Origin: a virus
Taxonomy: Duplodnaviria > Heunggongvirae > Uroviricota > Caudoviricetes
Reading direction: 5' to 3' (one strand)
DNA length: 19,695 nt
Virus record (IMG/VR): IMGVR_UViG_2700989272_000006
Span: 1-19,695 of that record
The notes under the pieces were generated by a model. The model was given only the letters and a program-made list of their open reading frames with translations, did no database searches and was not told the origin of the DNA. Below, one piece after another: positions 727-11,735 of this stretch. Made by a program: the position numbers and the translations under genes. Each line of letters starts with the position of its first letter. Position 1 is the stretch's first letter.

Positions 727-752
727 AGCCACTCTGTAGGGAGTGGCTTTTG
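727..752 (+). terminator. Putative intrinsic terminator hairpin (gccactc-tgtagg-gagtggc followed by TTTTGT)
   Basis: 7-bp perfect stem with 6-nt loop and a following T-run on the plus strand, downstream of the plus-strand ORF 463..678. Confidence 0.3.
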
Positions 753-959
753 TAATGACAATAAAAAGCCCCGCGAATACGAGGCTAAATCCTGGTATTT
801 GTAATGACTGGCTCTTATCTCAACGCAGCCCCTTACCGCGCGCAAGATGCTCAATATCAAGCATCAGCAATGAGATATTTAATCTGGATTCACTCCAGAA
901 GTGATCACCACCCTGTCTACAGAGCCAGATGTGAAGGATGATGAGTAAAATTATCGCTA

Positions 960-1427
960 TCATCGAAGGCATTGCGTCCTGATATATTCCTGAAGCGTTC
1001 TCAGTGCTGTCTGGTCTCTGATGATTCCGTCCCGGATACCGAGAACGTTTCGTCCAGCAACTGGAGAGAGTTCGACGGTGGCATCATTGCCCATGCCGGA
1101 GGCGCTGGAGGTTTCGGCTGAGGATGGCACAGAGCATTTTCCTTTGACGAGCACCCGACCACCATTATCAAGCTTGCGCCGAAGAGCATCATTTTCAGCT
1201 TTCGCATCAGCCAACTCCTTCGTGTATTTAGCATCGAGTACATCAGCAGCACGCTGGCGTTGCTGCATGTCAGTAATGGTGGCGGTCGCCTGCTTCAGCT
1301 CACTGACTTTTTTATCACGCTGTTCTTTGTAGGCGATGGCGTTATCACGGTAATGATTGACCGCCCACGACAGGCAGACGATGATGCAGATAACCAGAGC
1401 ATAAATAATCGCGGCGACTCTGCTCAC
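960..1427 (-). CDS. Rz: Spanin inner-membrane subunit Rz (i-spanin)
   Basis: Translation ...[38 protein letters not shown]...[16 protein letters not shown]... is collinear with lambda Rz (N-terminal TM helix, coiled-coil body). Likely GTG start at 1427 overlapping the endolysin TGA stop (GTGA); the ORF-track start at 1442 is TTG. Confidence 0.85.
1001..1207 (-). CDS. Rz1: Spanin outer-membrane lipoprotein Rz1 (o-spanin), embedded in the +1 frame of Rz
   Basis: [21 protein letters not shown]... has a lipobox (VVGC) followed by a Pro-rich segment ([16 protein letters not shown]), as in lambda Rz1; AAGGAG SD 6 nt upstream of ATG at 1207; fully embedded within Rz. Confidence 0.75.
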
Positions 1428-1957
1428 TGATCTATCCCCCAACAGGCTAATGCGCTTTCCTGGTCACGACGAATAACCTGTCCATAGCAGTTATTTGAAC
1501 GTATGCGGCAATCGCGCCCACCATCTTTTATCCACCAGCGAATCGCCTCGCATGCACCCTTACGATCACCGGCATTCAGCCGCTTATAAAACGTCGACGG
1601 GAAACACTTACCGGGGCCAATGTTATAGGGACAAAATGACGCTATACCCGCTTTCTGTGGTTCGGTCAGTGGCACTTTAATATTGCGCTCCACCCATGCC
1701 AGCGCCTTATCCCGTTCAATGGCGTTAACCTGGTCGCATTTTTCCTTCGACAGTTTCATACCGGGAAAAACGGGTTTTCCATCCACCACCGTGGCACCCC
1801 GACAGATGGTCCAGATGCCGGAACCATCGCGGTATGCCGTTGTGTGGTTACCTTCTTTTTCATTCAGAAACTGGTCGAGAATATCAGGCGCAGGCGCACC
1901 GACGGCAATCAGTGCCAGAACGGCAGCCGACAGGCCGTATCTGATTTTTACGTTCAT
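1424..1957 (-). CDS. SAR endolysin (T4-lysozyme-like, GH24 muramidase) of phage 21 R type
   Basis: E-x8-D-x5-T catalytic pattern ([16 protein letters not shown]) typical of T4-type lysozymes; N-terminal weakly hydrophobic Gly/Ala-rich segment ([17 protein letters not shown]) consistent with a signal-anchor-release domain; sits downstream of a pinholin. Confidence 0.85.
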
Positions 1958-2062
1958 GGATATTTATCAGGATTTATCGGTTTCTGAACCCTGGATATGT
2001 TTATCTGTCCCGGCCTGTTGAATCAGGCAAGGAATAGTTAAATACAATAGAGAGGATTGTTT

Positions 2063-2335
2063 ATGGACAATAGCACCATTTCTCTACAGGAGTTGCTCGA
2101 CTGCATTTCCAAGCTTCGGGATGATGTAAATGCCCTTACTGTCGCATTTTCATATCTGGCATTCTCAATTCCCAAGGAACAAATGCAACCAACACTGGCA
2201 TCGCTCCAGCTTGAATCACTCAACCCCAAATGGTCCCAGCAACAACAAAATTCTTTCAAGTGGCTGGCGGTATTACTGGAAGAAAAATATGCTGGTGAAA
2301 TTACCATTTCGGCGGAGTCTTCAGAGAACCAGTAA
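2063..2335 (+). CDS. Hypothetical 90-aa protein, reverse-oriented inside the lysis cassette (candidate moron)
   Basis: ATG at 2063 preceded by AGAGAGGA 6 nt upstream; fills a 344-bp gap between the endolysin start and the DUF1327 gene stop that has no minus-strand gene; hydrophilic, Q-rich product (MDNSTISLQELLDCISKLRDDVNALT...). Coding status unverified. Confidence 0.3.
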   Translation: MDNSTISLQELLDCISKLRDDVNALTVAFSYLAFSIPKEQMQPTLASLQLESLNPKWSQQQQNSFKWLAVLLEEKYAGEITISAESSENQ

Positions 2336-2645
2336 TTCTTCCCGGTAGCTTTCCTTTGTAGGTTATCCACACATTCTGCGCCTCTAAAATTATGGGGCGC
2401 TTTTCCGGCGACAGCTCATCCCCTTCACATAACCCGGCAGCAACATCCAGGAAGACCTGTCTGATGCTCCTTCTGGCTGCTGCCTCATAAAACTCCAGCG
2501 CGGCACCTTCAACACGGTCCAGCGAGATGTCCAGGTCAAAAATTTCACCGTCAAAGCGGTTTTTGTCCCGTAACGCTAAAGTTACCGTAACTTTATTCTC
2601 AAAATTGCGGATCCCTTTCACAATCAGTTCATAGTTTTGAGTCAT
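2301..2645 (-). CDS. DUF1327-like protein (YdfR-like), lysis-cassette-associated
   Basis: 114-aa ORF with ATG at 2645 and GGAGAG SD; located between holin and endolysin, the position YdfR occupies in the E. coli Qin prophage. The family assignment is from memory. Confidence 0.55.
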   Translation of the reverse strand: MTQNYELIVKGIRNFENKVTVTLALRDKNRFDGEIFDLDISLDRVEGAALEFYEAAARRSIRQVFLDVAAGLCEGDELSPEKRPIILEAQNVWITYKGKLPGRITGSLKTPPKW

Positions 2646-2649
2646 TGAA

Positions 2650-2865
2650 TTACTCTCCCCGTGCAGCCTTACGCTTGTCTTCTTTAATCTTGAAATAAAG
2701 ATTTGTCAGATACGTCAGCAGGCCAAACACCAGACTACCCAGCACACCTATTGCCGCCCACTGTGAGGGCGTGACTTTATCGAGCAACTGTAAAAACCAG
2801 TACCCGGCACTACCTGCTGAGGTGCCATAGGCGACACCCGTTGTTAACTTATCCATGGATTTCAT
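2650..2865 (-). CDS. Pinholin, phage 21 S21-like class II holin with dual-start motif
   Basis: [71 protein letters not shown] is near-collinear with the S21 pinholin as I recall it (two TM segments, charged C-terminus); Met1/Met4 dual start (2865 and 2856); strong GAGGTGGGG SD. Confidence 0.85.
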
Positions 2866-2932: not shown

Positions 2933-3985
2933 TTATTTCCCCACCAGCTCGTTTATCTCTTTCACTGTCTGGTTAAACCGCTCTGACTCAAGCTCAACAC
3001 CTAAGGCCCGACGCCCCAGCGCCATTGCTGCTTTTATTGTGGAACCGGATCCCATAAAAAAATCAGCAACCAGATCACCAGGTCGACTACTGGCATTGAT
3101 TATTTGCCTGAGCATATCCGCCGGTTTCTCACACGGATGTTTACCCGGGTAGAACTGAACGGGTTTATGCATCCAGACATCGGTATAAGGCACGGAGACT
3201 GATACGGAGAAATAGCGCCGGAGAGATTTAAACTCATCCAGCAATTCAGAATATTTGCGATTCAGTGAATCATAAGATGCCACCAGCTGGTGGTGTGGTT
3301 GTTCCAGTTGTTGTTCCTGAAACTTCTCTGCCGCTATACGGGAAAACAGTGCCTGTAACTTCCGATAGTCAGCCTCATTCGGCAACTGCCACTGACTGGC
3401 ACCAAACCAGTGGGAAACCATATTTTTCTTACCTGTGGCTTCGGCAATTTGTTTTGCCGTTATACCCAGTTCGGCACGAGCATCCCTGAAATACGATATC
3501 AGCGGTGCCATTATGTGCTGTTTGAGTTCCCTTTCTTTTGCCGCATAGCCGTCACTTTTGCCGCGATATGGCCCCTGGTAATGTTCAGCAAACAGAACGC
3601 GCTCTGTGGCAGGAAAATATGCGCGCAGACTTTCTTTATTACACCCATTCCAACGTCCGGACGGCTTCGCCCAGATGATATGGTTAAGCACGTTGAAACG
3701 TTCACGCATCATGATCTCAATATCAGATGCCAGGCGATGCCCACAGAACAGGTAAAGGCTTCCGGCAGGTTTTAACACCCGCCAGAACTGGGCCAGACAG
3801 TGGTCCAGCCACTTAAGGTAATCTTCGTCCCCTTTCCACTGATTGTCCCAGCCGTTGGGTTTCACCTTGAAGTACGGCGGATCGGTAACAATCAGGTCAA
3901 TGGAATCATCAGGCAGGGACTGAATAAAATGCAGGCAATCAGCGTTGATTAAATCAGCACTGTTTATTTTTACAGTATTTTTCAT
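2933..3985 (-). CDS. DNA methyltransferase, beta-class amino-MTase (N6-adenine or N4-cytosine)
   Basis: N-terminal catalytic motif IV (IVTDPPYF) and C-terminal AdoMet-binding motif I (DFFMGSGST) in the circularly permuted beta-class order; 350 aa; no cognate restriction enzyme recognised adjacent. Confidence 0.85.
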
Positions 3986-4615: not shown

Positions 4616-5233
4616 TCAATTATCTTCCAGGCCGGATGCTATCAACGAAAGCCTCTCAAAAAACGCTGTAGCAGCCTTGTCCAAAGTTGAATAAGTACTG
4701 TATTCTCCGTGTTCGGGACCAACCACTACCCATGGTCGTCTTTTTGGGATTCGGGACTTCTCAGAAATCACTGTTCCAGATATACCAATATCAATTGTTA
4801 CACCTGTTATTATTTTCTCTTCATCTCTTTCCCTGAACTCAATTGCCATAAATGCCGTTTTTTTTCGTTTCCCGTTTTTAAAAAAATCAAATAAAGCAAA
4901 GCGATGCTCATTAAAATCAACACCCCATCGTCCTTCAGGATAAAGGGCATGAAAGTTGTCATTTACGCTCTGCATCGTCTCATAAGCTTTAACTTCTAAA
5001 TCTCCATAGTGCATAGATACCGCGCAGGAGTCACTGGGTAACTGTATTTTCCCAAGATTGAAAACCTTTACTGCTCCAGAACTATGGCATCTTGCCCGCA
5101 ATTTATCCCCATTTATACTAATCGGAGAAATATTCCTTAATGTTCCGGGCTGGCTCCCTCCTAAGTAAACGACTGTTAAAGATTGCTTATTTTCAATTGC
5201 ATCAACTAATACATGCTCTACATTTTTATCCAT
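4616..5233 (-). CDS. Hypothetical protein (205 aa), AT-rich moron immediately downstream of Q
   Basis: ATG at 5233 with GGGAGG SD 5 nt upstream (the ORF-track start at 5260 is upstream of the SD). Lower GC than flanking phage genes; own terminator. No domain confidently recognised; the N-terminal 65 aa (LTVVYLGGSQPGTLRNISPISINGDKLRARC...VKVFNLGKIQL) weakly resemble a WYL/SH3-like beta-barrel pattern. Confidence 0.65.
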   Translation of the reverse strand: MDKNVEHVLVDAIENKQSLTVVYLGGSQPGTLRNISPISINGDKLRARCHSSGAVKVFNLGKIQLPSDSCAVSMHYGDLEVKAYETMQSVNDNFHALYPEGRWGVDFNEHRFALFDFFKNGKRKKTAFMAIEFRERDEEKIITGVTIDIGISGTVISEKSRIPKRRPWVVVGPEHGEYSTYSTLDKAATAFFERLSLIASGLEDN

Positions 5234-5260
5234 AATAACCTCCCGATGAACAGGTATCAT

Positions 5261-5330
5261 CAGGAGGTTATAATAAAATATGATTATTTACTTTGATTGA
5301 ATTTATTACTATATGTAACAATCAATTTCT
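5261..5330 (-). promoter_or_regulatory. Candidate late promoter (pR-prime-like) region overlapping the Q 3' end / Q-205aa intergenic spacer
   Basis: AT-rich stretch with sigma70-like hexamers (e.g. TTGATT ... TAATAAA) directly downstream of Q, where lambdoid phages place pR-prime and qut. Exact -35/-10 not resolved. Confidence 0.25.
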
Positions 5331-5680
5331 AAAGATACCCCCAACATTGCCAGACAACCGTCAATAAACCCTTCAGCTTTCTGCAGTCTGATAACAACCT
5401 GATTAAGTGATATCCCCAGTTTTACCCCCAACGCCCGTAATGTAACCCCATACACATAATACATTTCCAGTAATTCGTATTGATACGGTTCCTTTTTCTT
5501 AAGAACTGTCATTGCAGAGCTAATGATCAGGCCATCGTCATCGCTACATTGCGGGCGGGATTTTACTTTCGAAGGAATTAATCCCTTAAAACCTGCAGCA
5601 ACAGATGACCATTCCACATCCTCGTGATTATTTGCCACCCATGCCCCCCAACGTTCAAGAACCATTTGAATATCACGCAT
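5309..5680 (-). CDS. Q: Late-gene antiterminator Q (short QuuD / 933W-type)
   Basis: MRDIQMVLERWGAWVANNHEDVEWSSVAAGFKGLIPSKVKSRPQC... matches the N-terminus of short Q antiterminators as I recall them; first ATG at 5680 with GGAGAAA SD; positioned immediately upstream of the lysis region. Confidence 0.75.
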   Translation of the reverse strand: MRDIQMVLERWGAWVANNHEDVEWSSVAAGFKGLIPSKVKSRPQCSDDDGLIISSAMTVLKKKEPYQYELLEMYYVYGVTLRALGVKLGISLNQVVIRLQKAEGFIDGCLAMLGVSLEIDCYI

Positions 5681-10590: not shown

Positions 10591-11735
10591 TTGCGCCCCC
10601 TTACCTCTGAAGAGTTCAGCGACGAATGAATAAGACGGGCAAGAAATGCCGCATCGTTAATTCGGTCATACAGACTTACAGCCAGAGGTGATTCAGCTTT
10701 TTCCAGCATGGGATAAAGCTGCTGCAACCAGACCTGATGAATTGATGAAATGTAGGAATAGAGAACGCTGGCGTTATGTGCAACGTCGCTCGGTACAGCG
10801 GGCTTTGAAAGCTGTTTCTCCATCTGGTTAAAGGCATTGATGTATGCCTCTTTGAACTGGGCAGCACGTTTACCCGTGAAACCCATAGCAAGAAACGCAA
10901 AGCCGTCGCGGGTTATTTGATAGCAAGGTAGTTTGCGGCCTGTGCAATCGGTGTAATCACTCACCGAAAAATTGCGGGCAGTGAATGATGCGGAACATTC
11001 AAGCGTGCGGATCTTTTTCAGTACATCGTCATGACGTTTGGAGAAGAAGTTGGCAACAGCCAGGGATGAAGTAACAGCCTGACCATCAACGATGGCAATT
11101 TCAGGTTGAGTGAGGGTTGGGATCGTAGCCATGATGGCAGTCTCCGATAACAGTGAATTACCTTCACCACCGGAAACGCCAATTTCGCTGGTGGTGAACT
11201 GAACGGGGTTGGCGTAACCGGCGTTATCGGAAACCGGCGCACCTTTCGGTGCCCCCGTCCAGCCCACCATAATTTGGGTGTGCACAGACGCAGACGATAA
11301 AAAAGACGCTGGCGCGTCATATATCGCCGATAACATTTCCAGGACGCCAATCCCGACACCCGCTTTATAAGGTGCCTGAACAGTGTAACGTCCCGGAATG
11401 GCAGAATCAATGTGCTGGTGGTCCTTCACACTCAACAAAATCACGCCTGAATTTCCACAAAGGACTAAAGCACTCATGCGGGTAGTCTTTGCGAAGATAG
11501 ATAACGCGCTGTGTTTCTGGCTCCCAACGAATAACATGGACATAAAGCCCTCTTCCGTCACGAAACCAGCGGTTAAGTTCCTGCACAACTCGCCCCCCAC
11601 AGTCAGGTAAAGTTCTCTGTGGTTACTTACAGCCAGGTGATTTGGTAATCTGCATTCATGCCGTAACAACAGGTGTTCAGCGACGCTGACCACCAGCTGT
11701 TGCGACAAACGGTTATTTGCCGTTAAACTGTTCAT
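10587..11735 (-). CDS. Rha-domain phage regulatory protein with about 200-aa N-terminal extension of unknown function
   Basis: Residues about 205-300 (VTSSLAVANFFSKRHDDVLKKIRTLECS...YQITRDGFAFLAMGFTGKRAAQFKEAYINAF) match the Rha/ORF6-type pattern; ATG at 11735 with GGAGAAA SD and ATGA overlap with the upstream stop support the long form. The N-terminal half has atypical composition. Confidence 0.6.
   Translation of the reverse strand: MNSLTANNRLSQQLVVSVAEHLLLRHECRLPNHLAVSNHRELYLTVGGELCRNLTAGFVTEEGFMSMLFVGSQKHSALSIFAKTTRMSALVLCGNSGVILLSVKDHQHIDSAIPGRYTVQAPYKAGVGIGVLEMLSAIYDAPASFLSSASVHTQIMVGWTGAPKGAPVSDNAGYANPVQFTTSEIGVSGGEGNSLLSETAIMATIPTLTQPEIAIVDGQAVTSSLAVANFFSKRHDDVLKKIRTLECSASFTARNFSVSDYTDCTGRKLPCYQITRDGFAFLAMGFTGKRAAQFKEAYINAFNQMEKQLSKPAVPSDVAHNASVLYSYISSIHQVWLQQLYPMLEKAESPLAVSLYDRINDAAFLARLIHSSLNSSEVRGRK

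Follow-up and report, generated by a model that had tools for sequence, protein, structure and literature searches.

Morons of the lambda bor and lom type are small extra genes of the phage late region, which lie on the opposite strand, are optional among collinear relatives, have a base composition unlike that of their neighbours and have relatives outside phages. The bor gene adjoins the lysis genes, points in the opposite direction to the late operon and is active in the prophage; a promoter of its own has been demonstrated, and the lipoprotein that it encodes is exported and has a known phenotype, serum resistance. In the Qin prophage of K-12, ydfR overlaps the endolysin gene rrrQ by 4 nt. 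The K-12 YdfR protein (103 aa) is reported to bind RNase E at its catalytic domain and possibly RNA (PMC13232886, 2026).

The locus described here lies in a stretch of 19,695 nt from a Caudoviricetes virus (IMG/VR record IMGVR_UViG_2700989272_000006), which we refer to as the window. It contains a plus-strand ORF of 90 codons that resembles bor and lom-type morons in its small size, late-region location, strand, optional presence, base composition and relatives outside phages. Whereas bor comes after Rz, the ORF sits inside the lysis cassette, with ydfR on one side and the endolysin gene R on the other, and it overlaps the 3′ end of ydfR; unlike Bor, its product appears to be cytoplasmic. A second useful comparison is with PHROG 2411, a sequence cluster with no assigned function, of which the window ORF is a full-length member. 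To this cluster we add a set of chromosomal orthologues between dinI and bssS, an insertion polymorphism, and copies on a genomic island and a plasmid.

A reverse-oriented ORF within a lambdoid lysis cassette

The window carries a minus-strand lambdoid lysis cassette that comprises a P21-type holin, a YdfR-family (DUF1327) protein, an endolysin and Rz (Table 1). It is plausible that the endolysin is of the SAR type, because it has an N-terminal hydrophobic stretch and is accompanied by a P21-type holin. The original prediction placed a plus-strand ORF starting at ATG 2063 in a 344-bp gap between ydfR and the endolysin gene. Both the ORF list and the gene coordinates bear out the gap and the ORF, but the gap (1958-2300) measures 343 bp. 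The ORF runs to a TAA stop at 2333-2335, and an alternative upstream start, TTG at 2057, would give a product of 92 aa.

The ORF and ydfR are convergent, and their 3′ ends overlap by 35 nt; the last eight ORF codons and the stop (2309-2335) are the antisense of the ydfR 3′ end and the C-terminal RITGSLKTPPKW of the ydfR product is encoded opposite the ORF tail. On the other side, the start of the ORF is separated from that of the endolysin gene by 105 bp on divergent strands, a spacing that recurs in 194 of 199 loci (endolysin found). The order S-ydfR-ORF-R is seen in all 202 Escherichia phage loci. A good Shine-Dalgarno sequence had also been anticipated, and it is indeed present as AGAGAGGA; the pattern nnnGAGGA followed by ATG is retained in 199/199 loci, where the main variants are AGAGAGGA, CAAGAGGA and CATGAGGA. 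The description of the product as Q-rich was a mild overstatement, as glutamine accounts for nine of the 90 residues, and most alleles have QEQQ in place of QQQQ.

Table 1 Features of the lysis region of the window, with the basis on which each was assigned.
Feature	Position	Strand	Basis or remark
Rz	960-1442	-	
Endolysin (rrrQ-like)	1424-1957	-	Pfam Phage_lysozyme
Inverted repeat/hairpin GCCTG-TTGAAT-CAGGC	2013-2028	+	RNA fold; left insert edge
Inserted module, ~295 bp, GC 42.5%	2015-2309		Alignment with Stx2a_WGPS2 and vB_EcoS-813R8
Candidate weak promoter TTGAAT (2018-2023)-N19-TACAAT (2043-2048)	2018-2048	+	Inferred by reading the sequence
Shine-Dalgarno sequence AGAGAGGA	2049-2056	+	Core GAGGA 2052-2056, 6 nt before ATG
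90-aa ORF, PHROG 2411 member	2063-2335	+	ORF list, RefSeq annotation, frame conservation
YdfR-family (DUF1327) late gene, 114 aa	2301-2645	-	Pfam DUF1327, E = 3e-42
Candidate terminator-like hairpin GCGCCTC-N9-GGGGCGC then TTTT	2378-2404	+	RNA fold; inferred; inside ydfR
P21-type holin (essD-like, holin S)	2650-2865	-	Pfam PF04971, E = 2e-35

The ORF lies on an optional low-GC insert

Two phages collinear with the window, Stx2a_WGPS2 and vB_EcoS-813R8, lack the insert and have a ydfR-R spacer of 50-63 bp. The insert is likewise absent from K-12 Qin, which is otherwise collinear as well. The GC content of the inserted module (42.5%) is below that of R (52%), ydfR (48%) and the whole window (48%). 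Its right junction falls inside the ORF, and the last eight codons and the stop come from the antisense of the shared ydfR 3′ end; this tail is predicted to be disordered and is variable across the family. Among 5426 complete genomes of E. coli, 1156 (~21%) have the insert, and a nucleotide search recovered 1355 E. coli places in all. BL21(DE3) has an insert 100% identical to that of the window in its Rac prophage, a decayed element of E. coli B, where the gene order is essD-ydfR-ORF-rrrQ-Rz, located between sieB/ydaF and trkG (L228, NZ_CP053602.1, 7950-9849); the ORF itself is HO396_RS06965 in that genome (1404947-1405219).

The ORF is thus optional among collinear relatives, with clean junctions and a base composition unlike that of its neighbours. 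We consider it probable that the ORF is a genuine protein-coding moron, carried on a low-GC cassette of ~295 bp at the ydfR-endolysin junction and facing against the late operon.

In phage 2H10 and in phages of the PhiR12 group, a different cassette occupies this junction. It encodes a protein of PHROG 2572 (‘DUF1823 containing protein’) and resembles the window ORF in being a backward-facing frame of ~86 aa, in having its own Shine-Dalgarno sequence, and in overlapping the 3′ end of the YdfR gene. In 2H10 (L206) the ORF lies at 1614-1874 (+) and the YdfR gene at 1822-2373 (-); unlike the window insert, this cassette adds a C-terminal extension of ~70 aa to YdfR. Homology between the two small proteins was considered and rejected, as BLASTP found nothing and hhalign gave a probability of 0.3%. 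The ydfR-endolysin junction appears to be a hot spot for the insertion of unrelated reverse-oriented cargo genes.

The plus-strand frame is conserved as protein

When the gap sequence is shuffled, 3.4% of the shuffles contain an ORF of 90 or more codons, so ORF length is weak evidence in its own right and the case for a gene rests on conservation. From 202 IMG/VR loci we derived 46 distinct alleles of 1958-2345, sharing 86-100% identity and showing no indels. In a count restricted to these loci, 194 of 199 have an uninterrupted plus frame, a count with a mild bias toward intact copies as the loci for the selection tests were fetched with the plus-strand protein as query; the five interrupted copies are each a single-locus allele. 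Variable sites number 13, 12 and 33 at codon positions 1, 2 and 3. The dN/dS of the plus frame is 0.23, against values above 1 for the four frames whose wobble positions differ from its own. The reading frame is thus conserved, and not just the nucleotides, whose conservation alone was one of the outcomes that would have refuted the original prediction. These data indicate that the ORF is a genuine protein-coding gene, in which the protein sequence, and not merely the DNA, is conserved under purifying selection.

Nonsense mutations are present in ~5% of alleles, and both truncated alleles and some 94-aa frameshift alleles occur, as is expected for prophage genes. The 94-aa E. coli alleles (P0044, P0046, P0049, P0051 and P0058) are a minority; they show a +1 shift after approximately codon 58, near CAGCAACAACAAAA, and retain only the first two helices of the predicted structure described below.

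A protein family with members inside and outside phages

The ORF is already present in RefSeq as a hypothetical protein, under accessions WP_000370545.1 (locus L001) and WP_000370546.1 (BL21(DE3)), and is annotated as a CDS in phage Chlobot. A few records call the product ‘Ybl58’. Its match to PHROG 2411 is full-length (E = 2.2e-59, residues 1-90 against profile positions 1-90 of 90), and the homologues from Citrobacter, Serratia and an unassigned phage contig (L216) match the same cluster. A search of the protein against Pfam and NCBIfam gave no family, PADLOC defence models matched neither the window protein nor the Serratia and Citrobacter homologues, and a scan of viral contigs with the protein P0033 found nothing. 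Literature searches on ybl58, DUF1327, the accessions and lysis-cassette morons returned nothing specific to the ORF. It is a gene found in ~21% of complete E. coli genomes, including BL21(DE3), yet lacking a Pfam family, a name or a literature.

An exhaustive HMM search and a second profile search revealed distant homologues of 81-106 aa with 30-42% identity, in both phage and non-phage loci. Every one of these homologues corresponds to the plus frame, not the antisense frame. They have in common the pattern ELL..I..L+..vN.L.vAFSYLAF...ES.N...Q..F..LA, and in the 46-sequence alignment the conserved core comprises L11, L12, I15, A28, F29, Y31, L32, F34, E51, Q62, F65, L68 and A69. The AlphaFold model of the ORF protein (mean pLDDT 82) has three helices, at residues 8-33, 38-52 and 59-77, and the protein is predicted to be soluble and of ~10 kDa, with a disordered tail. 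Fold searches with this model were uninformative. By reading of the sequence, with no prediction tool, we see no obvious transmembrane segment or signal peptide.

In a collection with one genome per species, a homologue was found in 42 species, and in 40 of these it occupies a syntenic position, pyrC-dinI-X-bssS, in constant orientation. These 40 species include ~27 of Serratia, together with members of Chimaeribacter, Hafnia, Biostraticola, Acerihabitans and Sodalis. In a Sodalis-like group, the homologue instead adjoins genes for DUF892 and DUF1883 proteins. The dinI-bssS gene belongs to the same family as the window ORF (30-40% identity, ~90 aa), and has the conserved AFSYLAF, ES.N and Q..F..LA positions. 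It differs in that it is monocistronic and belongs to the host core genes in a syntenic position, has a conserved promoter-like block upstream, and lies off mobile elements, with no overlap of a convergent gene; it is uncharacterised as well. In Serratia it is preceded by the dinI terminator, has its own Shine-Dalgarno sequence, and is followed by a hairpin.

The promoter-like block of the chromosomal orthologues (L233-L272) reads [TC]TGG[CA]A-N17/18-TGTAAT and lies ~20-60 nt upstream of the ATG. It is common to Serratia, Sodalis, Acerihabitans, Biostraticola and Chimaeribacter, and leaves a very short leader in some species (S. marcescens, Chimaeribacter). The Serratia orthologue also lies ~2 kb from rne (L208-L211, 1-2945 versus 5001-5279). 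Set against the reported binding of RNase E by K-12 YdfR, this proximity is most likely a coincidence.

Copies in other mobile contexts

A diverged copy (60% identity, intact at 90 aa) is found next to iha, an adhesin/siderophore-receptor gene, in ~60 complete genomes including SMS-3-5. The lysis genes are gone from this locus, and of the R 5′ flank only a decayed remnant persists, on the upstream side. As the copy retains just this endolysin-flank remnant, the small gene has outlived the lysis cassette with which it once travelled. In E. coli GF60 (L230), as in SMS-3-5, the copy lies at 4894-5310 within an IS-rich island. On the IncF plasmid p04IncF (L229), a family member of 89 aa is encoded at 2608-2877, directly downstream of an autotransporter gene and flanked by IS remnants.

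The Citrobacter prophage homologues are backward-facing and next to lysis genes, upstream of the holin gene. The homologue in the phage contig L216 also faces backward, and lies upstream of two late-strand genes of unknown function, which in turn are followed by the terminase genes. Every phage-borne copy is thus placed among late genes, and each runs toward a late-strand gene and overlaps its 3′ end; the product of that gene has the C-terminal ending K.xG..(R/K)ITGSL(K/R)xP. The motif is encoded at 2301-2340 (-) in the window, and the partner genes elsewhere lie at 5239-5430 (-) in L212, 5248-5436 (-) in L216 and 3239-3955 (-) in L232. The partners differ N-terminally, being the 114-aa DUF1327 protein in the window and unrelated proteins of 62, 63 and 238 aa in the other loci. 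K-12 YdfR has neither the ITGSL motif nor the insert next to its gene. These shared partners might point to a connection with lysis or with YdfR, which we treat here as a consequence of shared ancestry.

Putative expression signals

The candidate promoter upstream of the ORF has a -10-like hexamer that reads TACAAT or GACAAT in the alleles and TATAAT in the iha-island copy. A start from this promoter would leave a leader of ~8 nt. A scan for sigma-70 promoters near the ORF, with spacers of 16-18 nt, gave no match; the spacer of the candidate is 19 nt. Promoters for sigma-54, sigma-E and sigma-28 were considered by reading the upstream sequences, and gave no consistent fit across the homologues. 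As dinI is the neighbour of the Serratia gene, a LexA box was also sought, and there is none near the ORF and, by eye, none upstream of the Serratia gene.

Downstream, the terminator-like hairpin within ydfR is part of the flank that is common to insert-free phages. It falls below the thresholds of the terminator scan, which found none at the ORF, but the stem at 2378-2400 with its TTTT could act as a terminator for plus-strand transcripts. Further to the left, two terminator-like hairpins stand back to back between the cos-proximal region and Rz, one at 727-757 (+), after a 71-aa plus-strand ORF (463-678), and the other at 767-786 (-), after the lysis genes. With these in place, read-through on the plus strand from the left to 2063 is unlikely.

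The hairpin at the left edge of the insert is kept in a divergent lineage with an altered loop (TTGCCT). Hairpins are also seen 40-70 nt upstream of other phage-borne homologues, at 4927-4948 in both L212 and L216. The L212 hairpin, CGCCAGTG-GTAGGA-CACTGGCG, is two compensatory pair changes apart from that of L216, CGACTGTG-GTGGGA-CACAGTCG. The window hairpin is shorter than these, and no T-run follows any of the three. A search of 1700-2900 against Rfam gave no family match.

Possible role of the gene product

Given the kind of gene this is and the neighbours that it has, we infer that the ORF would be transcribed alone, from the weak promoter immediately upstream, at times when the late operon is silent, as in a lysogen or a cryptic prophage; other morons that face backward in the late region behave in this way. 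The product, a small soluble protein, may then modulate host physiology, probably by binding a host protein, with a role in neither lysis nor antisense regulation. These two steps, transcription and modulation, are much less certain than the core of the account, namely that the ORF is a real gene and a moron.

A bolder version of the account is unlikely when taken as a whole. It would hold that the gene is a small regulator of host origin, with its ancestral locus at dinI-X-bssS among small stress and SOS genes, from which it was captured by phages; that the captured family has been deliberately kept tail-to-tail with late genes ending in ITGSLxxP, including that for YdfR; and that the protein, or the convergent overlap, couples the stress state of the host to expression of the lysis module.

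The main alternative to a moron is an accessory of the lysis module, whose position would be functional and whose product would assist or oppose YdfR or the holin-endolysin pair, for instance in the timing of lysis or in blocking premature lysis. We regard this as unlikely. In its favour, the S-ydfR-ORF-R arrangement is invariant in the 202 Escherichia phage loci, the ydfR-R overlap of K-12 is interrupted by the insert, the Citrobacter homologues face backward beside lysis genes, the L216 homologue is placed just upstream of the terminase genes, and the phage copies always converge on and overlap a late gene with the (R/K)ITGSL(K/R)xP ending. Against this, the ORF is on the strand opposite to the late operon and has no lysis annotation in Pfam or PHROG, such that it does not look like a canonical lysis component. 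Orthologues are present on the chromosomes of 40 species with no lysis genes nearby, the intact copies beside iha and on the IncF plasmid have lost theirs, and related phages manage without the ORF. The apparent lack of a transmembrane segment or signal peptide, judged by sequence reading only, points the same way.

Considerably less likely is a regulatory RNA, in which antisense pairing or convergent transcription would damp late-operon transcription that reads through into R and Rz, with the ORF being incidental. A plus-strand transcript would indeed be fully complementary to the ydfR-R late mRNA and the ydfR 3′ end, and there is a hairpin at the left edge of the insert. However, conservation acts at the amino-acid level, with a clear codon-position pattern and a frame that is kept across lineages of 86-100% nucleotide identity, and homologues of 30-40% identity exist in non-phage loci. 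As the family is present where there is no lysis operon at all, its conservation cannot stem from being antisense to one. The region 1700-2900 has no Rfam match, the promoter scan did not find a strong promoter, and a transcript beginning inside the gap would miss the start codon of R. The original prediction had offered either a moron expressed in the lysogen or an antisense regulator of lysis timing. Of its first option, the moron part is supported by the optional low-GC insert, by purifying selection and by the homologues outside phages, whereas the part on expression in the lysogen stays a prediction; its second option is not supported as the purpose of the gene, in view of the amino-acid constraint, the homologue loci free of lysis genes and the Rfam result. 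Under the moron reading, convergent transcription may still affect the late operon as a by-product.

Another possibility is that the genuine gene lies on the minus strand, as the 110-aa ORF at 2038-2370, which is co-directional with the late operon and would make the plus-strand ORF its shadow. This frame is open in the window and its dN/dS, at 0.21, is as low as that of the plus frame, but the two have wobble positions in common, so dN/dS cannot separate them. Stop-codon counts and the quality of the substitutions differ, and these settle the strand. Internal stops interrupt the antisense frame in 109 of 199 loci and in 23 of the 46 alleles, located mid-ORF across whole lineages, and its own stop codon is not conserved. 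The plus frame shows conservative substitutions (mean BLOSUM62 +0.29), the antisense frame radical ones (-0.57). The antisense product is rich in Cys and Ser and has no Pfam match, and the distant homologues all match the plus frame. This possibility is effectively refuted, and we consider it very improbable indeed.

Equally improbable is that the ORF is decaying or spurious and has stayed open through chance and annotation habit, a reading that the comparative data likewise effectively refute: the shuffling result and the nonsense or frameshift mutations of some alleles would suit it, but the signatures of selection, a deep family with conserved synteny in 40 species and a confident three-helix model do not.

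The ORF, as a probable moron, is an ordinary kind of feature from a useful uncharacterised family, and introduces neither a new mechanism nor a new kind of lysis regulator. The combination of a selected protein, an orthologue at dinI-bssS, and carriage into late regions of prophages (beside the lysis genes wherever these were identifiable), the iha island and an IncF plasmid makes it a well-defined target for small-protein studies.

Other features of the window

Just upstream of the holin gene, a 350-aa ORF resembling a DNA methyltransferase (2933-3985, -) has its start overlapped by a perfect CTGT-N8-ACAG sequence, similar to a LexA box, at 3960-3975 (+) (CTGTTTATTTTTACAG). In the early region, two Rfam models score above the gathering threshold, C4 antisense RNA (82.8 bits) and isrK (61.5 bits), with matches at 11187-11274 (-) and 11299-11375 (-). 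These matches point to an antisense immunity element of the P1/P7 type in the early region of the prophage.
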